Shown: piece by piece, positions 16,293 through 26,475 of the stretch
How positions within the stretch are numbered: position 1 is the first letter of the stretch
Layout of the letters: the number at the start of each line of letters is the position of its first letter
From: Terriglobales bacterium
GTDB lineage: Bacteria > Acidobacteriota > Terriglobia > Terriglobales > Acidobacteriaceae
Assembly: GCA_049300475.1 (NCBI GenBank)
Contig: JBAQJU010000335.1
Coordinates: forward strand, 10,578-74,577
Reading direction: 5' to 3'
Length of the DNA stretch: 64,000 nt
Program-made: the position numbers and the translations under genes
The notes under the pieces: model-generated
The model's database searches: none
Seen by the model: only the letters and a program-made list of their open reading frames with translations
Told to the model about the DNA's origin: nothing

Positions 16293-17726
16293 TTGCACGC
16301 TCAAGCCCATGACATGACGTCCAGCCCTTTGCCCTCTGCGCGAGAGATTGCCGCCCTTATCCGCGCAAGAACAGTCTCCCCTGTTGAAGTGGCGCGCTCT
16401 CACCTGGATCGCATCGAGCGCCTTAATCCCGTGCTCAATGCGTTTGTGGACTGCCGGCCGGAGGCAGTGCTGGCGCAAGCGCGCAAGGCTGAGCGAGCTG
16501 TTCTCCAGGGAGACACCTTGGGCTCGCTGCATGGCGTACCGCTGTCGATCAAGTCCTCTATCGACGTTGCCGGACACCAGTGTGAAGCGGGCACGCGCTT
16601 GCGCGCCGGATACATCGCTGCTGAAGATGCTCCTTTGGTCGGTCGCCTGCGCGCGGCAGGTGCGGTCATTCTCGGTGTCACCAACGCGCCCGAGTTACTG
16701 ATGGCATGGGAAACCGACAACCTTCTCTATGGTCGTACCAATAACCCCTGGGATCTGACGCGTACCGCGGGCGGTTCAAGCGGAGGCGAAGCGGCGGCCA
16801 TTGCAGCAGGCTTCAGCGCAGGCGGCGTGGGCAGCGACGGCGGAGGCTCCATCCGCGAGCCAGCGCACTTCTGCGGCATCTGCGGATTGAAGCCGACGCC
16901 GGGACGCATTCCATCGACCGGGCATTTTCCGAAGGCGGGCGGCCCATTCGCCCTGCTTGGCGTGGTCGGGCCGATGGCGCGCACCATCGACGATTTGCGA
17001 ATTCTATTTGAAGCGATGGCGGGCGCAGACGACGGCGATCCGTGCTCGGCTCCGGTGCCCGTGCGAATCGCCGAAAGGGAACCGCGAGGCATCGGGCTCG
17101 GTGTCTTTGAGGACGATGGGCGCACGCCGGTAACGAAAGAGACGCGGGCTGCGGTCAGGCGGGCGGCCGCGCTTCTATCGCAGAGCGGCTATCGAGTGGA
17201 GGACTTCCGTCCCGATGGTCTGGAAGAAGCGCGTCAACTTTGGTGGGAATTGTTCGGCACCGCTGGCGGAATGATTCTCGGCCCCCTGGTGCGTGGCCAC
17301 GAGGACGAACTGAGTCCCATCCTGCGCGAGTTTCTCTCGTGGACTTCGGCCAAGCCCGTGCACACGGGCGAGTCGCTGCTCGCAGCCTGGGTGGGCCGCG
17401 ATGAATTGCGCGAAACAATTCTGCGCCAGATGGGGAAGTATCCTGTACTGCTTTGTCCGACTGCGGCGATCCCCGCCTTTTGCCATGGCGAACGCGAATG
17501 GCAGGTGGAGGGGCAGAGCGTGAAGTATCTGGATGCCTGGTCCTATTGTGAGTGGTTTAACCTGCTCGGCTTTCCCGCCGTCGTCGTCCCGATGGGATTC
17601 TCTGAAGAAGGCTTGCCCATCGGAGTTCAGCTCGCCGGACGCCCCTGGGAAGAAGAACTCGTGCTCTCTGTTGCCGCTGCGCTCGAAACGGCGCGCGGGC
17701 CGCTGCCGTCCTCGCCGCAATTTTAG
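16293..17726 (+). CDS. Amidase (amidase-signature family)
   Basis: 477 aa. GGSSGGEAAAIAAG is the amidase signature. The start is TTG 16293 or ATG 16314. Confidence 0.85.
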   Translation: MHAQAHDMTSSPLPSAREIAALIRARTVSPVEVARSHLDRIERLNPVLNAFVDCRPEAVLAQARKAERAVLQGDTLGSLHGVPLSIKSSIDVAGHQCEAGTRLRAGYIAAEDAPLVGRLRAAGAVILGVTNAPELLMAWETDNLLYGRTNNPWDLTRTAGGSSGGEAAAIAAGFSAGGVGSDGGGSIREPAHFCGICGLKPTPGRIPSTGHFPKAGGPFALLGVVGPMARTIDDLRILFEAMAGADDGDPCSAPVPVRIAEREPRGIGLGVFEDDGRTPVTKETRAAVRRAAALLSQSGYRVEDFRPDGLEEARQLWWELFGTAGGMILGPLVRGHEDELSPILREFLSWTSAKPVHTGESLLAAWVGRDELRETILRQMGKYPVLLCPTAAIPAFCHGEREWQVEGQSVKYLDAWSYCEWFNLLGFPAVVVPMGFSEEGLPIGVQLAGRPWEEELVLSVAAALETARGPLPSSPQF

Positions 17727-17907: not shown

Positions 17908-20742
17908 ATGTCAGTCTCCAATCCATCTCCGTCCAGTCCGAAGCTGGTGCGCGCCTTGTTGGTTGTCCTGGTCGCGTCGGCGGCCTATTTGTATCCTTTC
18001 CCGCAAGCCAATCTTATTTATCCCGCAGTGGTCGTGATTCACGCACTTGCTGGAGTTCTGGCCGCCATCGTCGGCGCGGTCCTGCTGTCACGCCTGGTGC
18101 GGCACGGGAGCATGGTTTGGAAGGCGGGATGGCTTCTGCTCGCTGGCGGCGCCGGTCTGGGCCTGCTTCTCCTATACACGGGAACTTCGCGCAGCGAGTT
18201 CAAATGGCTCTATGGGCATATTGTTCTGAGCATGCTCGGCATCGGTTGTCTGCTCGCCGAGATCCTGCGAGGCCGTGGCTGGTTGCGTTCGTACGCCGCC
18301 GTCCGGTTGCTGGTTTGCTTTGCTGCTCTCGGCGCAATTGGGTGGGCCGCGCACTATCAGCGCGAGAATCGCTGGCTGACAAGCTCGGTCATTAAAAATC
18401 CTGCGCTTCCTCCAGGAACTATGAACGGCGAAGGAGACGGACCATCGGGCCCATTTTTTCCGAGCTCGGCGCAGGTCTATGGAGGACAGAAAATTCCCAG
18501 CAAGTTCTTCATGGAGTCGGACTCCTGCAAGCGCTGCCACGAAGATATCTACAACCAGTGGAATAGCTCCGCCCACCATTTTTCGTCGTTTAACAACCAG
18601 TGGTATCGCAAGGCGGTCGAGTACATGCAGGATACGGTCGGCACCAAGCCTTCCAAATGGTGCGGCGGATGCCATGACCCGGCCGTGCTCTACGCCGGCA
18701 AAATGGATACTCCCATCAAGCAAATTGTGCACACGCCTGAGGCGCAAGCCGGTTTGGGGTGCATGATGTGCCACTCCATCGCCGACGTGAAAAGCACGAT
18801 GGGCCAGGGCGATTTCTACCTGGAGTACCCTAAACTACATGAGCTCGCCGCCAGCAAGAATCCGGTGGTTCGAGCGCTCCACGATTTCATCACCAAGCTG
18901 AACCCGGAACCACACCGTCGCGTCTTTCTTAAACCCTTCATGCGCGAGCAGACGGCCGAATTTTGCTCCTCGTGCCACAAGGTTCATCTCGACGTTCCCG
19001 TCAACGGCTATCGCTGGCTGCGCGGCTTCAACGAGTACGACAACTGGCAAGCCAGCGGAGTTTCCGGCGAGGGCGCGCGTTCGTTCTATTACCCTCCCAA
19101 ACCGCAGCAGTGCGCCGATTGCCACATGCCGCTTGAGACTTCCAACGACAGGGGCAACATCAATGGCAAGGTGCACTCGCATCGTTTCCCGGCCGCCAAC
19201 ACGGCGCTGCCCACTGCGAACGAAGATGCTGCCCAGTTGAAGGCCACCGAAGACTTCCTCACCAGCGGAATCGTCAGCGTTGATATTTTTGCGCTCTCTC
19301 CGGCCATCGCACTTAAGAATGAAACGGGAACGGTCGCACAACACGAACTGGCAACTACTTTCGCCGTGGGCGAAGAGGCCGAGGCCCCATCGCCTGCCAC
19401 TATGACTTCCGAAAGCACCAGTGAAGCCACTCCCATCACGGCGCCTGTGGACCGCGTCCACGCAACCGTACGTCGCGGCGACACGGTGCGCGTCGATGTC
19501 GTAGTGCGCACCAAGCGCGTCGGCCACTTCTTCCCCGGGGGCACGGTGGATGCCTTCGATACCTGGCTCGAACTGAAAGGCGTCGACGACCGGGGCCAGA
19601 CAATTTTCTGGAGCGGCATGGTGGAAGATGGCGGCAAGGGTCCGGTGGAAAAGGGCGCGCACTTCTATCGCTCGCTCCAGGTTGATGGGCATGGCAATCC
19701 GATCAACAAGCGCAATGCCTGGGCGACGCGCTCGGTCGTCTACGTGCATCTCATCCCGCCGGGCGCCGCTGATACGGTGCACTTTCGCATGAAAATCCCT
19801 GCGAAGGCTGGCCACAAAATCAATCTCACCGCGCGCCTGTGCTACCGCAAGTTTGCCTGGGGAAACACACAATTTGCGTTTGCCGGACAGCCGGATCCCG
19901 GCGCGCCCAGTTCCCAGGTTGCTCCGGCATATGACGACAGGAAATTCCTGCTGAACGCGTCACTGCATGGAGTATCGGCAAAAGAAGAAAAGATTCCTGA
20001 TCTGCCCATCATGGCGCTCGCTGAAGACCATGTCACGCTCGACGCGCTGCCCTCCAACGCTCCTGTGTCGCAACCTTCCCAGCAACTCAGAAAAGAAGAC
20101 TGGCAGCGATGGAACGACTATGGCATTGGCCTTTTGCTGCAGGGCGATCTGAAAGCGGCGCAGTCGGCATTTGAAAAAATCACTGAGATTGATCCGCAAA
20201 ATCCCGACGGCTGGGTCAACATCGGCCGCGCTGCCCTGCAGGAGGGCGACGTGTCGCGCGCCCGCTTTGTCCTCGAGAAAGCGCTGGCTATCAACCCCAA
20301 GCTGGCGCGGGCCAACTTTTTCTATGCATCGCTGATGAAGACCGCTGGAGACTACGACCAGGCGATCGCGCATCTTGAAGTCGTGCTCGCACAGTATCCG
20401 CGCGACCGCGTGGCACTCAACAATCTCGGGCGCATCTTCTTCCTGCAGAGAAAATATGGCGACGCCGTGAAAGTTCTCGAGCAGGTGCTGGCAGTCGATC
20501 CGGAGGATCTTCAGGCGCACTACAACCTGATGCTCTGCTACAACGGGCTGGGCGACGGAAAAATGGCCAGGGAGCACCAGGCTCGCTATCTGCGCTTCAA
20601 AGCCGACGAAGCTTCGCAAGCCATTACCGGCCCCTATCGCCGGCTACATCCGGAAGACAACAACGAGCGCCAGAACATTCACGAGCATGTGTCGGTGCCG
20701 CTACCGATCCTAGCCGGAGCTTCCGCAGGAGCATCCAAGTGA
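17908..20742 (+). CDS. Membrane-anchored pentaheme c-type cytochrome with C-terminal TPR repeats
   Basis: About five N-terminal TM helices. There are five CxxCH motifs: C207KRCH, C252GGCH, C285MMCH, C353SSCH, C402ADCH. A TPR block spans roughly residues 735-900. Confidence 0.8.
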   Translation: MSVSNPSPSSPKLVRALLVVLVASAAYLYPFPQANLIYPAVVVIHALAGVLAAIVGAVLLSRLVRHGSMVWKAGWLLLAGGAGLGLLLLYTGTSRSEFKWLYGHIVLSMLGIGCLLAEILRGRGWLRSYAAVRLLVCFAALGAIGWAAHYQRENRWLTSSVIKNPALPPGTMNGEGDGPSGPFFPSSAQVYGGQKIPSKFFMESDSCKRCHEDIYNQWNSSAHHFSSFNNQWYRKAVEYMQDTVGTKPSKWCGGCHDPAVLYAGKMDTPIKQIVHTPEAQAGLGCMMCHSIADVKSTMGQGDFYLEYPKLHELAASKNPVVRALHDFITKLNPEPHRRVFLKPFMREQTAEFCSSCHKVHLDVPVNGYRWLRGFNEYDNWQASGVSGEGARSFYYPPKPQQCADCHMPLETSNDRGNINGKVHSHRFPAANTALPTANEDAAQLKATEDFLTSGIVSVDIFALSPAIALKNETGTVAQHELATTFAVGEEAEAPSPATMTSESTSEATPITAPVDRVHATVRRGDTVRVDVVVRTKRVGHFFPGGTVDAFDTWLELKGVDDRGQTIFWSGMVEDGGKGPVEKGAHFYRSLQVDGHGNPINKRNAWATRSVVYVHLIPPGAADTVHFRMKIPAKAGHKINLTARLCYRKFAWGNTQFAFAGQPDPGAPSSQVAPAYDDRKFLLNASLHGVSAKEEKIPDLPIMALAEDHVTLDALPSNAPVSQPSQQLRKEDWQRWNDYGIGLLLQGDLKAAQSAFEKITEIDPQNPDGWVNIGRAALQEGDVSRARFVLEKALAINPKLARANFFYASLMKTAGDYDQAIAHLEVVLAQYPRDRVALNNLGRIFFLQRKYGDAVKVLEQVLAVDPEDLQAHYNLMLCYNGLGDGKMAREHQARYLRFKADEASQAITGPYRRLHPEDNNERQNIHEHVSVPLPILAGASAGASK

Positions 20743-22493
20743 TCCGCAGCCTGAAGTCTGACCTCACCACGAAGGCACGGAGTCACAGAGAAAAACGCGA
20801 CTTGTTCGTGTTTGACTTGCTCCGTGTCGCCGTGTCTCCGTGGTTAATCGCACTGTTGCTCGCAGCAGCGAGTAGCGCGCAAACCATCACCTTCCGCGAC
20901 ATTGCCGCTCAAGCCGGCATTCATTTCACCCATAACAATGGAGCGTTTGGGAAGAAGTGGCTGCCCGAAACAATGGGCCCGGGCTGCGCTTTCATTGATT
21001 ACGATAACGACGGCTGGCCCGACATTCTGCTCGTCAATGGAACAGATTGGCCGGGACATGCAAAAAACGGCGCGACGACTCTGAAGCTCTACCACAACAA
21101 TCGGGATGGCACGTTCAGTGATGTGACTCGCAGATCTGGCCTGGGGATCGCGCTCTTCGGCATGGGCGTCGCCATCGGCGATTACGACAACGACGGGTTC
21201 GACGACATCTTTATTACTGCCGTTGGCCAAAGCCATCTCTTCCACAACAACGGGAATGGAACGTTCACCGACGTCACGAAGCCCGCGGGGCTGTGGGGCC
21301 CGAGCGAGTTCTCGACCAGCGCGGCCTGGGTCGACTACGATCGCGATGGGAAGCTCGATCTCGTCGTTGCCAACTATGTGCAGTGGTCGGAGCAAACCGA
21401 TCTTTACTGCACGCTCGATGGCGCGCATAAGTCTTACTGCACGCCCGAATCGTACAAGGGAACGTCGGTTCGCCTCTGGCATAACTTAGGCAATGGCAAA
21501 TTTGAAGACGCGACGCGGAAGGCAGGACTTTATGATGAAAGCTCGAAAAGTCTGGGCATCGCGATCCTCGACTATAACAATGACGGTTGGCCTGACATCT
21601 TCATTACGAACGACACCCAGCCCAACAAGCTTTACCTGAACAAAAAGAATGGCAGCTTTGAAGAGCGCGCCGTTCCTGCCGGCATCGCCTTCAGCGAAGA
21701 TGGAATTGCCCGAGCCGGCATGGGCGTGGACGCCGCCGACTACGACCGTTCGGGCAGCGCCAGCCTGATCATTACAAATTTTGCCAATCAGATGCTCGCG
21801 CTCTACCACAACGAGGGCAACGGACTTTTCGTGGACGAGGCTCCCACGTCCGAGGTTGGGCGGGCCACCCTTCTTACGCTTGGTTTCGGTTGCTTCTTCT
21901 TCGACTACGATAACGACGGCTGGCCCGACATTTTCGTGGCCGACGGCCACATCGAAAACGAGATTGAGCGCGTGCAGAGGCGCGTTAGTTATGCTGAGCC
22001 CCCACACCTGTTCCGCAACCTGGGTGGGGGAAAGTTCGAGGAAGTTACGGCCAAGGCCGGCGCGAGCTTTGCTGCTGCAAAAGTCGGGCGGGGCGCGGCT
22101 TATGCAGACATCAATAACGATGGCGCGCTCGACATCCTAATGATGACGAACGGCGGCGCGGCGCATCTTTATCGCAACGAAGGCGGCACCAATCAGAGCC
22201 TGCGCGTGAAGCTGGTGGGAACGAAATCGAATCGCGATGGGATCGGCGCGGTGGTGCGGCTGTCTGCCGCCGCCGAAAAGCAGTGGCAGACGATGCGCTC
22301 AGGCTCCAGCTACCTGTCGCAGAGCGAACTGGTGCTGACGTTTGGCTTGGGCTCTAGAACAAAAGCTGACGCGCTGGAAATCCAGTGGCCGAGCGGGCAG
22401 GTGGATAAGCTGTCGAATGTCTCTGCCGGGCAGACGGTGACGGTTCAGGAAGCGAAGGGTGTGATCTGGGCTCGGCAGTATGGGAAGAGATAG
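20739..22493 (+). CDS. CRTAC1-family protein (FG-GAP/VCBS repeats plus ASPIC/UnbV domain)
   Basis: DYDNDGWPDI-type repeats recur. The C-terminal NRDGIGAVVRL...GSSYLSQSELVLTFGLG matches UnbV_ASPIC. The GTG start overlaps the upstream stop (GTGA). The first ~35 codons are a REP element, so the true start may be TTG near 20817. Confidence 0.8.
   Translation: MIRSLKSDLTTKARSHREKRDLFVFDLLRVAVSPWLIALLLAAASSAQTITFRDIAAQAGIHFTHNNGAFGKKWLPETMGPGCAFIDYDNDGWPDILLVNGTDWPGHAKNGATTLKLYHNNRDGTFSDVTRRSGLGIALFGMGVAIGDYDNDGFDDIFITAVGQSHLFHNNGNGTFTDVTKPAGLWGPSEFSTSAAWVDYDRDGKLDLVVANYVQWSEQTDLYCTLDGAHKSYCTPESYKGTSVRLWHNLGNGKFEDATRKAGLYDESSKSLGIAILDYNNDGWPDIFITNDTQPNKLYLNKKNGSFEERAVPAGIAFSEDGIARAGMGVDAADYDRSGSASLIITNFANQMLALYHNEGNGLFVDEAPTSEVGRATLLTLGFGCFFFDYDNDGWPDIFVADGHIENEIERVQRRVSYAEPPHLFRNLGGGKFEEVTAKAGASFAAAKVGRGAAYADINNDGALDILMMTNGGAAHLYRNEGGTNQSLRVKLVGTKSNRDGIGAVVRLSAAAEKQWQTMRSGSSYLSQSELVLTFGLGSRTKADALEIQWPSGQVDKLSNVSAGQTVTVQEAKGVIWARQYGKR
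20757..20848. repeat. REP family 2 element inside the annotated 5' end of the CRTAC1 gene
   Basis: CACCACGAAGGCACGGAGTCACAGAG...CTCCGTGTCGCCGTGTCTCCGTGG. It has the same core as 8631-8755 and 54456-54560. Confidence 0.65.
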
Positions 22494-22544
22494 AGGCGTC
22501 ACTTTCGAATAACTGGGCGTGTGTCTTCCTGAGCGGAGCAGTTC

Positions 22545-22572
22545 ATCCGCGAAGCGGATGAACCGCGGAGTC
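22545..22572. repeat. GC-rich hairpin (REP-like) in an intergenic region
   Basis: GTTCATCCGC gaa GCGGATGAAC is a perfect 10-bp stem. A second hairpin follows nearby: GGAGTTGCGC ttat GCGCAACCCC. Confidence 0.6.
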
Positions 22573-22740
22573 GAAGGATCCCTATCCCCCGGTTCGAATG
22601 TTCAGGATGCTCTTGATGTCTCTCGCGCTTTCAATTTGCCGGGTGTAGGGGTGCTTCGGCTGCGCCGGAGTTGCGCTTATGCGCAACCCCAGCTTGACAT
22701 TGCTTTATCTTGAGACCGCTATAATTCGACCAGTTTTCTC

Positions 22741-25700
22741 ATGGGAGCGATGAAACGAACTTACCTCTTGCTCGCGGTGGTCACCACCCTTGCTCTTGCG
22801 CTACTGAGCGCATCTTCATCCTCCGATCCCGCAGAAGCCGCTCGCCTCAACAATCTCGGGGTCGCCTACATGGACCAGCAGCTCTTCGAAAAGGCGCTGA
22901 AGGCCTTCGAAGAAGCGGCCGCCAAAGATCCGGCGCTGAAAGTCACAACCCTTAATCGCGGCGTGGCATTGCTCAATCTGCAGAAGGTTGAAGACGCAAA
23001 GGTGCTGCTTGAGAAAGCCGCCAAAGACGATCCCACCGACGCGCGTGCCTGGTTCAACCTCGGCCTCTACTACAAGAATTCGGCGAACTCCGAGGCCGCG
23101 TTGGGCGCGTTTCGCCGCGTCATCGACATCGATCCCAATGACGCCGACACCTGGTATTTTTTCGGCTCAACTTATGCGCAACTGAAACAATTTCCCGAAG
23201 CGATTGCCGCCTTTGAGCACGCGTTGAAGATCGATCCGCTGCACGCCTCCGCCCAGTTCGGGCTGGCACGAGCCTACCAGCAATCGGGGCAGACCGATCC
23301 CGCGCATGAGGCGATGAAGAGATTCCAATACGTTACGCAGAAGAAGCTGGGCGCGCCGATCAGCTTGATCTATGGCGAGCAAGGGAAATACTCGCGAGCG
23401 GAAGAATCGCCGCTGGCAGTGCAGAAAGTCCTGCCCCAGATTGACGTGAAGTTTGTGGATGTGTCCCTGCCGTCGAAACCCGGCCCGTATTTTGGAGCTC
23501 CAAGTCCTCCGACGAGTCTGGGACCCGGCTATTTGGGGCCGGGGGCGTGTTTTCTCGACTACGACAATGATGGTCGCATCGATCTTTTCCTTGCCAACAA
23601 CGGTGCACAAGGCGGCATGACGCTGTATCACAACGTAGGCAATGGAAAGTTCGAAGATGTTACGGCTGAGGCGGGATTTGATCCGAAGAACAGCGTAGTT
23701 GGCTGTACGGCAGGCGACTATGACAATGACGGCTTCGAGGACCTAGCGCTAGGCTTCTTAAACGCAATCAAGCTGTACCACAACGAGAAAAACGGGAAAT
23801 TCAAGGATGTGAACGAGGTATCCGGTGCGACTCGCCCCAGGTTCCCAAGTGCTCTCCCGTCGGAATTCTGGGGGTATGTGTATGGCCTCACCTTCGTGGA
23901 CTACGATCACGACGGGGACCTAGATCTGTATTCGGCCGGTACGGACAACGAGTGTGGGCGAACCCGAATGGCGTCGCCCCAGGTACCCACGATCCAGGAG
24001 ATGGAGGAAGCAGAGAAACAAGAAAAGGTAAAGCCGAAGCCAGAGGTGCCTTCGGAAGATGTCCCACTCGGCTCCTGCGGGCCCGGCAATATGATGTTTC
24101 GCAACAACGGGGATGGATCCTTCACGAGGGTGGAACACCAAACTGGGTTGACGGGTGAAGATCGGGGCGGTTCCCAAGGGAAGGGCGGCCTCAATGCGAT
24201 CGGCAGCGACATTAACAATGATCGCGCCGTCGATCTGGTAACCGCCCAGGTGACCCTCAACCCCATCGTCTACTTAAATCCCCGCGAAGGGAAGTTTATT
24301 CCCCTAAAGACCCCACGTGACGCCAAGACCGGTGGTGCGCACGGTTTAGCTGTACTCGACTTTGATCACGACGGTTGGATGGACATTGCGTTTACGCAGT
24401 CGGGCGAGCCAGGGCTGGTGCTTTGGCGCAATATTCTCGGGAAAGAATTTGCGCCGGTGAAGCTTCCGCAAACGGACTGGGTGCGTGCCTTCGGCATCGT
24501 CGCCTTCGACTACGACAACGACGGCTGGGTCGACCTCGCCGCCGTTGGCGAAACGAAAGACGGGCGCGGAGAGGTTCGGCTCTTTCGCAATCTCGGACCG
24601 GACGGATGGAAAGATGTCACCGCCGATGTTGGTCTCGACAAGATTCAACTCAAAGAGCCACGCGCCATCATCGCGGGCGATTACGATAACGACGGAGCTG
24701 TCGATCTCCTGATCACACAAAACCACGGGCCGGCTGTTTTGCTCCGCAATGAGGGCGGCAACAAGAACAATTCGCTGCGGCTTGCGCTCAAGGGGCTGAA
24801 CGACAACAAGTCGGCCATTGGCGCGAAAGTTGAAGTCTTCTCGGATGGCATTCGACAGAAGTTTGAGGTTTATGGGTCATCCGGATATCTTGGGCAGAAC
24901 TCGCCTTATCTCACGATCGGTCTTGGGCAGGCGAAGCAGGCTGATGTCGTCCGATTGCTTTGGCCCACGGGCGTTCTGCAGGACGAGGTTGAAGTCGCTG
25001 CCAACAAGTTGCAGCACATTCAGGAACTGGACCGGCGCGGCAGTTCCTGTCCTACGCTCTTTGCGTGGGATGGCACGCATTATGCGCTGGTCGGCGATAT
25101 GTTGGGCGCGGGGGTAATCGGACACTGGATTGCGGCTGGCGACCCTCAGGGGCTAAAGCCCCAATCCGTGAAGGCTCGGAGCGGCACGGCTGAAGCCGTG
25201 CCCTACCCAAAGCCGTCGGCTGAAGACGCGTCTCACACAACGACAATTGCGGAATCGCACTCGGGTGTTGTGCGCAACATTCCACGTCCAACGGAGGCCA
25301 TCAAACTCGACCGCGATGCTCTGCGTGAAAAGGATGGGGAGCTCAGCTTCCGCTTCATGGAGCCGCTGGAAGAGTCCGTCTATCTCGACCAGGTTCAGTT
25401 GCTGGCTGTCGATCATCCCGCGGACCTTGATGTTTATCCCAACGAATATTTCGCGAGCAATCCGCCGTACCCGCCCTTCAAGGTTGTGTTCAGCAACAAG
25501 AAAGATGCGCGGCCGCCGGCCGGAGCCTGGGACGATCACGGCCACAATGTTCTTCCCGACCTGCTGGCACATCGCTACTTTGGCGACTTCAAGGTGCTGC
25601 CGTTTCTGGGTTTCGCCGAGCCGCACTCGCTCGAACTCGATCTCGGCGCGCCCTACGACGGAGGGCCGCTGTGGCTGCTCATGCATGGCGAGATCGAATA

Positions 25701-26475
25701 CTACAGCGCGACCAGCATGTATGCGGCTGATCAAGCCGGGTTGCGCCCGATTGCTCCCTACGTCGAAGCGCAGAGCGAAAAAGGAAACTGGGTGCGGGTT
25801 GTCGATGATCTTGGATTTCCGGCGGGCGGCGCGCGCACCATGACTGCCGATCTTACTGGCAAGCTTCCGCTGGGCACACGCCGGATTCGACTCACTACCA
25901 ATTTGCAAATTTATTGGGACAACATTCTTATCAGCCGGACTCGGCAGGAGGAAACGCACGGACGAGGTGCCCGCGCCTCCATCACGCCCGTTCCGCTGGT
26001 GCGCGCCAATCTTGGTTTCCACGGTTTCCCACTCAAGATCGAAGGCCAACCGCCTGGCAACGTGAAATACATTTATGAGAAGACGAGCGCCACCGGCCCT
26101 TACACGCGCCCCGCCGGAGCCTACACGCGCTATGGCGACGTGCTCCCGCTGTTGACCGCGGTTGACGATAAGTTTGCCGTCTTCGGTTCCGGCGATGAAG
26201 TCGCGCTCGATTTCGATCCCACAAGCCTTCCCGCGCTCCCTTCGGGTTGGGCGCGCGACTATTTCTTCATCGCCAACGGCTACGAAAAAGATATGGATTT
26301 CTATGCTTACCGCGGCGGCACGGTCGAGCCAATGCCGTTCCGCGATATGACCGCTTACCCATATCACGGGCAGTCTTTTCCAAACGATGCCGATCACCTC
26401 AACTATTTGCTCGAATACAACACCCGATTCATGTCCAGCAACGAGGCTCGCGGGTATTCATTTAGATATCACTGA
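22741..26475 (+). CDS. Large TPR plus FG-GAP/VCBS plus ASPIC/UnbV protein with a ~470-aa uncharacterised C-terminal region
   Basis: 1244 aa with a signal peptide. It has N-terminal TPRs, many DYDNDG/DYDHDG repeats and an UnbV-like segment (NKSAIGAKVEVF...SGYLGQNSPYLTIGLG). A long C-terminal region was not recognised. Confidence 0.8.
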   Translation: MGAMKRTYLLLAVVTTLALALLSASSSSDPAEAARLNNLGVAYMDQQLFEKALKAFEEAAAKDPALKVTTLNRGVALLNLQKVEDAKVLLEKAAKDDPTDARAWFNLGLYYKNSANSEAALGAFRRVIDIDPNDADTWYFFGSTYAQLKQFPEAIAAFEHALKIDPLHASAQFGLARAYQQSGQTDPAHEAMKRFQYVTQKKLGAPISLIYGEQGKYSRAEESPLAVQKVLPQIDVKFVDVSLPSKPGPYFGAPSPPTSLGPGYLGPGACFLDYDNDGRIDLFLANNGAQGGMTLYHNVGNGKFEDVTAEAGFDPKNSVVGCTAGDYDNDGFEDLALGFLNAIKLYHNEKNGKFKDVNEVSGATRPRFPSALPSEFWGYVYGLTFVDYDHDGDLDLYSAGTDNECGRTRMASPQVPTIQEMEEAEKQEKVKPKPEVPSEDVPLGSCGPGNMMFRNNGDGSFTRVEHQTGLTGEDRGGSQGKGGLNAIGSDINNDRAVDLVTAQVTLNPIVYLNPREGKFIPLKTPRDAKTGGAHGLAVLDFDHDGWMDIAFTQSGEPGLVLWRNILGKEFAPVKLPQTDWVRAFGIVAFDYDNDGWVDLAAVGETKDGRGEVRLFRNLGPDGWKDVTADVGLDKIQLKEPRAIIAGDYDNDGAVDLLITQNHGPAVLLRNEGGNKNNSLRLALKGLNDNKSAIGAKVEVFSDGIRQKFEVYGSSGYLGQNSPYLTIGLGQAKQADVVRLLWPTGVLQDEVEVAANKLQHIQELDRRGSSCPTLFAWDGTHYALVGDMLGAGVIGHWIAAGDPQGLKPQSVKARSGTAEAVPYPKPSAEDASHTTTIAESHSGVVRNIPRPTEAIKLDRDALREKDGELSFRFMEPLEESVYLDQVQLLAVDHPADLDVYPNEYFASNPPYPPFKVVFSNKKDARPPAGAWDDHGHNVLPDLLAHRYFGDFKVLPFLGFAEPHSLELDLGAPYDGGPLWLLMHGEIEYYSATSMYAADQAGLRPIAPYVEAQSEKGNWVRVVDDLGFPAGGARTMTADLTGKLPLGTRRIRLTTNLQIYWDNILISRTRQEETHGRGARASITPVPLVRANLGFHGFPLKIEGQPPGNVKYIYEKTSATGPYTRPAGAYTRYGDVLPLLTAVDDKFAVFGSGDEVALDFDPTSLPALPSGWARDYFFIANGYEKDMDFYAYRGGTVEPMPFRDMTAYPYHGQSFPNDADHLNYLLEYNTRFMSSNEARGYSFRYH
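25146..25225. repeat. REP-like hairpin cluster lying in-frame inside the 1244-aa CDS
   Basis: GGGGCT aa AGCCCC (25149-25162) and GGCACGG ctgaag CCGTGCC (25183-25202). The same motif occurs in the intergenic copies at 54961-54981 and 55015-55028. The translation is GLKPQSVKARSGTAEAVPYPKP. Confidence 0.6.

Follow-up and report, generated by a model that had tools for sequence, protein, structure and literature searches.

What do the bacterial relatives of the animal protein CRTAC1 do, and why should two of them be encoded directly behind a multihaem cytochrome? Proteins of the CRTAC1/ASPIC-UnbV type occur abundantly in bacteria of soils and of the sea, and their animal homologue is of medical interest; to our knowledge no biochemical function has been established for them. 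The question is raised here by a 64,000-nt stretch from a soil acidobacterium of the Terriglobales (hereafter the window), which lies on contig JBAQJU010000335.1 (C335) of an assembly of 378 contigs and 5.28 Mb; its nearest public relatives are Terriglobales, Candidatus Sulfotelmatobacter and Acidoferrum metagenome-assembled genomes (MAGs). Three uninterrupted reading frames follow one another on the plus strand. Gene 1 (17908..20742) encodes, as judged from its translation and from Pfam matches to Cytochrome_C554 and TPR, a 944-aa membrane-anchored pentahaem c-type cytochrome with a C-terminal tetratricopeptide repeat (TPR) array. Gene 2 (20739..22493) encodes a predicted exported protein of 584 aa, a CRTAC1-type seven-bladed FG-GAP Ca2+ propeller with a UnbV_ASPIC domain, and gene 3 (22741..26475) a predicted exported protein of 1244 aa in which TPR, a CRTAC1-type propeller, UnbV and a C-terminal beta-sandwich region are combined. 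The cytochrome and the propeller genes prove to be linked across the phylum, and we give an even chance to the explanation that the cluster encodes a quinol-linked electron-transfer module of the inner membrane and periplasm, in which the TPR tail of the cytochrome docks substrate-holding Ca-propellers.

Conserved linkage of cytochrome and propeller genes

The first-pass annotation of this DNA had suggested a physical complex of the three proteins, an idea that would lose its basis if the families were unlinked in other genomes. Linkage was found both in close relatives and phylum-wide. With the N-terminal 720 aa of gene 1 as the query, a match was obtained in 143 of 401 sampled Acidobacteriota genomes, and the window proteins were mapped onto 60 loci from different genera and families. 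At 47 of these a CRTAC1-type gene lies on the same strand within 1 kb of the cytochrome gene, downstream in 43 cases and upstream in 4, and a downstream CRTAC1 match begins a median of 108 nt after the stop codon of gene 1. The CRTAC1-type gene is adjacent and convergent at one further locus and lies further off within the fetched locus at five; none was found at the remaining seven, three of which are at contig ends. A second set, the best 80 loci of the genome collection, consists of close relatives throughout; where the contig extends far enough, gene 1 is followed by gene 2 in 66 of 69 loci and gene 2 by gene 3 in 47 of 54. This 5.28-Mb genome holds about nine CRTAC1 genes and a single gene 1, for which chance adjacency amounts to ~0.2%. 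Against this background, about 80% or more of the examined loci show the pairing, and the adjacency of cytochrome and CRTAC1 genes is far beyond chance.

The pair is conserved even in paralogue classes that are only 28-47% identical in the haem core. When distances among cytochromes are compared with those among the adjacent propellers, a Mantel r of 0.81 is obtained, a value that is inflated by shared ancestry and that 0 of 2000 permutations reach, and the propellers group by cytochrome class, not only by host. Since class C paralogues come from the same family as the class A cytochrome of the window, this signal does not stem from species phylogeny alone, and the sequence distances indicate that the cytochrome and CRTAC1 families have co-diverged. 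No description of a pentahaem-TPR/CRTAC1 pairing was found in the literature, where the sole related report concerns a neighborhood of CRTAC1 and a hydrazine synthase (HZS)-like protein (PMC12758564).

Architecture of the cytochrome

The earlier view of gene 1 as about five transmembrane helices, five haem motifs and a C-terminal TPR array is confirmed by translation, by Pfam and by an AlphaFold2 model built on a 35-sequence alignment. The haem motifs read CKRCH, CGGCH, CMMCH, CSSCH and CADCH. Among the 26 Pfam families matched, of which the best 25 are listed, Cytochrome_C554 (PF13435) covers residues 206-290 with 32.2 bits against a cut-off of 20.8, and TPR covers about residues 730-900. The model places helices at residues 12-28, 37-65, 69-91, 95-122 and 130-159 with a predicted local distance difference test score (pLDDT) of 80-90; the TPR solenoid is also confident, and Foldseek with the full model matched only TPR proteins (MamA and consensus TPR proteins).

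Four segments can be delimited on the plus strand. Residues 1-160 (17908..18387) form a five-helix membrane domain with invariant His45 in the second helix and His104 in the fourth, a candidate b-haem or quinol-interacting module. Residues 161-470 (18388..19317) form the pentahaem domain, apparently of the type of c554 and Thermochromatium tepidum c552 (PHC). A strongly conserved, beta-rich middle domain follows (residues 471-720; 19318..20067), with the motifs GHFFPGGTVDA, KRNAW, IPPGAADT.H and YRKF.W and the invariant His540, and the protein ends in a TPR array (residues 721-944; 20068..20739), recognized by Pfam, AlphaFold2 and Foldseek, which would be periplasmic and is presumed to be a docking surface. 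Orthologues of gene 1 share 52-92% identity. By its domain content, gene 1 presents itself as a new architecture on a known electron-transfer haem domain.

Every one of the five haem motifs is invariant, both in alignments of 21 to 35 orthologues and across three paralogue classes; in these classes, at 30-81% identity, H223, H336, H425 and H540 are invariant as well, and K358 and M407 are nearly invariant family-wide. The motif of haem 1 is CxxCH or Cx4CH by lineage and the other four stay CxxCH; the Cx4CH form was seen in the homologues at loci L052-L055, L059, L146, L148, L150 and L172. Against the PDB, a profile of the haem-plus-middle region matches 5ze8 over haems 1-3 (E 2.3e-9), c554 (1bvb; E 5e-5) and, weakly, MccA and MccSep, and a CxxCHMP motif at the last haem is common to the gene 1 family and 5ze8. 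On these profile matches the haem domain is assigned to the c554 / T. tepidum c552 (PHC) group.

Comparison with the members of this group brings out what gene 1 adds. The structure 5ze8 has been grouped with Geobacter ExtKL and Gsu2801 as the "PHC" family, whose members have an immunoglobulin-like domain after the pentahaem domain (PMC11976967). Gene 1 resembles T. tepidum c552 (5ZE8) and PHC proteins in having five c-haems and, as modeled, a beta-rich domain after the haem domain; c552, however, is a soluble protein of 435 aa, whereas gene 1 adds the five-helix, His-bearing membrane domain, the TPR array and the linkage to CRTAC1 genes. For the middle domain of gene 1, which is modeled as beta strands at moderate confidence, neither Pfam nor the PDB gives a sequence match. 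The likeness to Nitrosomonas europaea c554 (1BVB; PF13435) lies in the first haems, which the profile covers together with the conserved His after haem 1. That protein is a soluble tetrahaem partner of hydroxylamine oxidoreductase, whereas gene 1 is membrane-anchored, carries five haems and ends in TPR.

The membrane domain has its own pattern of conservation. His45 and His104 are invariant in alignments of 21 and of 35 sequences and are also retained in the distant five-helix classes, all of which have four conserved His, spaced H-x17-20-H in the second helix and H-x13-H in the fourth; the clade of the window has only the periplasmic-side pair. A four-His spacing like that of the distant classes is classically seen in transmembrane dihaem b modules, and the mark of membrane b-type (di)haem cytochromes of the FdnI/HydC, NarI and b561 kinds, paired His on two transmembrane helices at matching depth, is found here in H45 and H104. 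The positive-inside rule fits a topology with a cytoplasmic N-terminus and a periplasmic haem domain, in which H45 and H104 sit at a depth of 8-9 residues from the periplasmic face; it is this rule, together with the odd number of helices, that places the haem domain in the periplasm. Taken with the His pattern, the five-helix domain is most likely a b-haem, quinone-facing anchor.

In concept, this arrangement recalls CbcL, ImcH and CymA/NapC/NirT of Geobacter and Shewanella, which likewise join a membrane module to a periplasmic multihaem domain. CbcL has a b-type dihaem membrane domain fused to a multihaem c domain. Gene 1 nevertheless has no sequence relation to these proteins in Pfam or NCBIfam and differs from them in domain order and haem number, and neither a TPR tail nor a propeller partner is described for any of them. 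The family NapC/NirT/CymA/NrfH (PF03264) is not among the Pfam and NCBIfam matches listed for gene 1; its members have a single N-terminal transmembrane helix and a compact tetrahaem domain, whereas gene 1 has five helices and a 300-aa pentahaem domain. NrfA (PF02335) is likewise not among the best 25 of the 26 Pfam families, and it has a catalytic haem 1 of the form CxxCK (or equivalent), whereas all five motifs of the gene 1 family end in His.

Homologues fall into three classes according to haem-core identity to the window: an orthologue class (60-86%; about 950 aa, five transmembrane helices), a distant class (37-47%; about 870-1140 aa, mostly five helices) and a short class (28-36%; 750-830 aa, with a single transmembrane helix or a signal sequence, L172 excepted). 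The five haem motifs and the middle domain occur in all three, and a TPR tail is detectable in all except L172. The family is large, with 765 clusters at 50% identity matching the haem-plus-middle region at E 1e-30 or better and 1833 at E 1e-10 or better. Source records name these homologues "tetratricopeptide repeat protein", PilF or TadD, and their cytochrome nature is thereby hidden in annotation. One locus labeled Verrucomicrobiia (L097; DATKQB010000008.1) carries a gene 1 copy that is 72% identical to that of the window and nested among Terriglobales sequences, and is probably a mis-binned contig.

The propeller proteins

Gene 2 had been read in the first-pass annotation as a CRTAC1-type FG-GAP/UnbV protein, and this identification holds: Pfam places FG-GAP_3 in eight stretches (E 1e-56) and UnbV_ASPIC (PF07593) at E 1.8e-20, and human CRTAC1 (PDB 9etn) is matched at E 4.7e-20. 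A signal-peptide-like segment, LLRVAVSPWLIALLLAAASSAQ, is present. In 46 cytochrome-adjacent homologues the Ca-binding DxDxDG loops and the FG-GAP structural residues are conserved, and few others are (H404, R451, Y525 and S527). Animal CRTAC1/ASPIC (9ETN) shares with gene 2 and with the core of gene 3 the FG-GAP Ca2+ propeller and UnbV_ASPIC. The Pfam content of gene 2 is limited to FG-GAP_3, FG-GAP and UnbV_ASPIC, the bacterial proteins are predicted to be periplasmic, and gene 3 differs from CRTAC1 by its added TPR and domains resembling carbohydrate-binding modules (CBMs).

The 1244-aa reading frame of gene 3 has the order that had been proposed for it, TPR followed by FG-GAP/UnbV and a tail of 470 aa, with Pfam matches to TPR at about residues 30-200, to FG-GAP_3 (E 3.4e-41) and to UnbV (PF07593) at residues 692-756 (E 1.2e-15). 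The tail (residues 776-1244; 25066..26472, plus strand) had been left unrecognized, and it indeed has no Pfam or PDB sequence match; AlphaFold2 and Foldseek now predict beta-sandwiches there, galactose-binding-like or CBM-like jelly-roll domains. The model has a mean pLDDT of 64, with 70-95 in its core (model residues 85-350), and, at this moderate confidence, its Foldseek relatives are APC10/Doc1, CBM32 (4a42), CBM22 and the lectinolysin lectin (E 4e-4 to 1e-2; template modeling score, TM(target), 0.4-0.5), along with ephrin-receptor ligand-binding domains. A ligand-binding fold, of a kind that often binds glycans, is therefore predicted for the tail, to the extent that the model can be relied upon.

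Two further observations concern gene 3. An in-frame insert of ~47 aa (25144..25284, plus strand) occupies a loop of the tail and, in an alignment with 30 relatives, is shared by L063 only; three loop sites of the tail hold variable in-frame inserts in different relatives (L063-L115), such as ...CHPERSEGP... and ...ESAGLRDDA..., and these resemble translated repeat elements. The source record seems to call gene 3 at only 865 aa (P0239), with the TPR region omitted; the long form is probably the correct one, as orthologues conserve the TPR part.

Other CRTAC1 neighborhoods in the genome

Three further CRTAC1 paralogues of this genome adjoin or are fused with TPR proteins that have no haem. At C353:2773-9980 (L180) a TPR protein is followed by CRTAC1, the two genes overlapping by 4 nt, and then by a TonB-type barrel; on C259 CRTAC1 is followed by a TPR protein; and C109:35-2932 (L184) encodes a 966-aa fusion of a CRTAC1 propeller, UnbV, an AhpC/TSA-like domain and TPR. 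The AhpC/TSA-like domain was considered as a third redox link and rejected, as it has no Cys at all and is probably not a peroxiredoxin. CRTAC1 is followed by a TonB-type barrel also at C89:15919-20889 (L186); the barrels on C353 and C89 consist of CarboxypepD_reg and OMP_b-brl_4 domains, and the arrangement resembles that of the SusC-linked ASPIC/UnbV genes of Bacteroidota.

A second type of haem protein stands beside CRTAC1 at C31:1-2433 (L183) and C274:1-1865 (L182), where the order is an HZS-alpha-like monohaem protein, then CRTAC1, then a beta-propeller. The monohaem protein has an HZS_alpha middle domain (PF18582; E 3.5e-13) and one CVGCH, and its gene is immediately followed by a CRTAC1 gene that is cut off by the contig end; on C274, a beta-propeller of Cytochrom_D1/YNCE type comes after the C-terminal part of a CRTAC1 protein. 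A CRTAC1-family gene has been reported to flank hydrazine-synthase homologues in Planctomycetota, Syntrophobacter and Paludibaculum (PMC12758564), and the arrangement on C31 and C274 looks like that of these published clusters. These HZS-like clusters are similar to genes 1 and 2 in that a c-haem protein is encoded beside a CRTAC1-type FG-GAP protein, but the haem proteins are unrelated (HZS-alpha middle domain versus PHC pentahaem domain), and the HZS-like clusters have no TPR-cytochrome fusion. By domain matches, TPR is a recurrent companion of CRTAC1, and two unrelated c-haem families are each linked to it. The haem-free TPR neighbors lend indirect support to the view that TPR may be the part that docks.

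Proposed function and alternatives

When these results are placed together, a route for electrons can be proposed. The five transmembrane helices would anchor gene 1 in the inner membrane with the N-terminus in the cytoplasm, and H45 and H104 would most likely ligate one b-type haem, which could exchange electrons with the menaquinone pool; in the distant relatives a second, cytoplasmic-side His pair would give a dihaem-b pattern. Electrons are presumed, the direction of flow included, to pass along the five c-haems of the c554/c552 (PHC) type, beside the conserved beta domain. The periplasmic TPR array may then dock the exported Ca2+ propellers of genes 2 and 3 by a putative contact, and the propellers would bind or present the actual substrate, for which the CBM-like tail of gene 3, if correctly modeled, suggests a glycan or another polymeric ligand. 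Established among these points are the domain architecture, the conservation of haem motifs and His, the gene adjacency and the co-divergence of the pair. The outer-surface location that the first-pass annotation had also envisaged is not supported, as the cluster contains no porin or outer-membrane cytochrome and its parts read as inner-membrane or periplasmic.

Several findings weigh against a quinol-linked module of this kind. The short paralogue class is without the five-helix domain, so that quinol coupling cannot be universal in the family, and the domain itself matches no known b-cytochrome family in Pfam, where eight N-terminal domains searched at E up to 10 gave noise only. The haem domain has a pLDDT below 50 in the AlphaFold2 model, so that neither the way the haems are ligated nor the place of the middle domain has structural support. 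The propeller has no invariant Cys, and H404 is the sole invariant His in the 46 cytochrome-adjacent homologues; with no conserved cofactor-type residues, nothing marks it as a redox enzyme or cofactor site. A cytochrome-propeller fusion was not found among the top 150 representatives, which reach at most 1219 aa, and the seven of the longest type that were scanned contain no FG-GAP. Finally, the TPR-CRTAC1 pairs without haems in this genome indicate that the propeller does not need a cytochrome.

The last point is taken furthest by an alternative that we regard as rather unlikely, while taking it more seriously than any other: the cluster would encode a non-redox envelope complex of TPR and CRTAC1 proteins, serving matrix or polymer binding, adhesion or TonB-linked uptake, in which the propeller positions or scaffolds the cytochrome and receives no electrons. 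The haem-free pairs or fusions on C353, C259 and C109 fit such a complex, as do the two CRTAC1 genes followed by TonB-type barrels (CarboxypepD_reg and OMP_b-brl_4), the conservation of the propeller, which is only structural and Ca-binding, and the resemblance of the modeled gene 3 tail to CBMs. However, the cytochrome-propeller pair persists through deep paralogue divergence and co-diverges, which is more than would be expected of an interchangeable scaffold, and a second, unrelated haem family, the HZS-alpha-like proteins, is also linked to CRTAC1.

It seems improbable that the cluster serves extracellular electron transfer to metals or humics, as its stage in the inner membrane and periplasm, with gene 1 as a quinol dehydrogenase like ImcH, CbcL and CymA, even though gene 1 does combine a membrane anchor with a multihaem architecture. 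The PHC family includes Geobacter ExtKL, for which a role in extracellular electron transfer has been proposed (PMC11976967), and the genome is rich in multihaem open reading frames (ORFs), with 21 that have at least three CxxCH motifs and up to 19 haems. Yet no outer-membrane porin or outer cytochrome lies in or beside the cluster, no NapC/NirT-type family is among the Pfam matches listed for gene 1, and the obligatory CRTAC1 partner is left unexplained. The module is moreover present in about a third of the sampled Acidobacteriota (143/401), many of which are presumably aerobes.

Still less probable, in our estimate, is an enzyme that transforms a small nitrogen or sulfur compound at a haem beside the conserved middle domain. 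The matches of the profile to c554 and, weakly, to MccA and MccSep could be taken in this sense, as could the extreme conservation of the middle domain with its invariant His540 and the fact that close relatives are peat MAGs labeled Candidatus Sulfotelmatobacter; clusters of HZS-alpha-like protein, CRTAC1 and propeller, found in published genomes (PMC12758564) and here, point the same way. All five motifs are, however, ordinary CxxCH, the invariant His suffice for mostly bis-His ligation, and no catalytic signature was identified, while the best structural relative, 5ze8, is described as a low-potential electron carrier. Chance adjacency or independent genes, for which the hairpin-bearing gap of 247 nt that separates genes 2 and 3 and an indecisive promoter/terminator scan might be cited, is already refuted by the linkage counts (47/60 phylum-wide and 66/69 in close relatives versus ~0.2%) and by the co-divergence of the families, and retains practically no likelihood.

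Beyond this cluster, the quinol-linked module could be one case of something wider. We raise tentatively, as a possibility that we rate below that of the module itself, that bacterial CRTAC1-type propellers are substrate-binding or terminal subunits of widespread, undescribed periplasmic oxidoreductases, into which dedicated haem modules feed electrons and for which TPR is the universal docking adaptor. The haem module would here be a new b/c-haem fusion drawing on the quinone pool and elsewhere an HZS-alpha-like protein. If this were true, it would follow that the family, animal CRTAC1 included, descends from a redox-linked ligand-processing machine.

A deeply conserved, co-diverging multihaem cytochrome partner in the membrane gives the CRTAC1/ASPIC-UnbV proteins a first concrete and testable context, a redox one. 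It also exposes a large cytochrome family behind the label "tetratricopeptide repeat protein", which genome surveys of respiratory and extracellular-electron-transfer capacity in Acidobacteria probably miss. The five-helix, His-bearing domain would, if confirmed, be a new membrane b-cytochrome module.

Junctions and flanking genes

At the junction of genes 1 and 2, the GTG at 20739 and the gene 1 stop overlap in the sequence GTGA, and an AGGAG stands 7 nt 5' of this GTG. Translational coupling had been concluded from this overlap; the overlap is present in the DNA, and coupling is plausible rather than proven, as other in-frame starts (TTG and GTG codons) occur at 20802-20817. The gap between the two genes is at most 75 nt whichever start is used. 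Between genes 2 and 3 the spacer is unusually long, at 247 nt compared with mostly <100 nt in relatives, and it contains a perfect 10-bp hairpin on the plus strand (22541..22563; gttcatccgc-gaa-gcggatgaac). With no T-run after it, the hairpin is read not as an intrinsic terminator but as an element like the repetitive extragenic palindromes (REP), and the short spacers of relatives suggest a REP-type insertion at this point. A promoter/terminator scan gave no more sites than were found in shuffled controls.

Upstream of gene 1 lies an amidase-signature enzyme (16293..17726, plus strand; Pfam Amidase E 2.5e-106), apparently cytoplasmic and without a signal peptide, which precedes gene 1 in most close relatives. 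An amide or C-N hydrolase was considered as a core part of the module and rejected, since 25 phylum-wide loci have mixed upstream neighbors (one CN_hydrolase and two TPR proteins among them). Given this variation and the missing signal peptide, the amidase probably stands outside the module, its synteny holding at the level of the order only. A FadB-like gene and a gene for a Crp/Fnr-type regulator are found further upstream. Downstream of the cluster lie genes for a PpiD-like peptidyl-prolyl isomerase, MalQ and an ATP-binding cassette transporter; PpiD and MalQ were rejected as members of the module, being kept downstream in only 9 of 53 close relatives. As to the genome as a whole, ORFs with 19, 16 and 13 haems are found on C210 and C361, and the organism appears to be an unusually cytochrome-rich acidobacterium.

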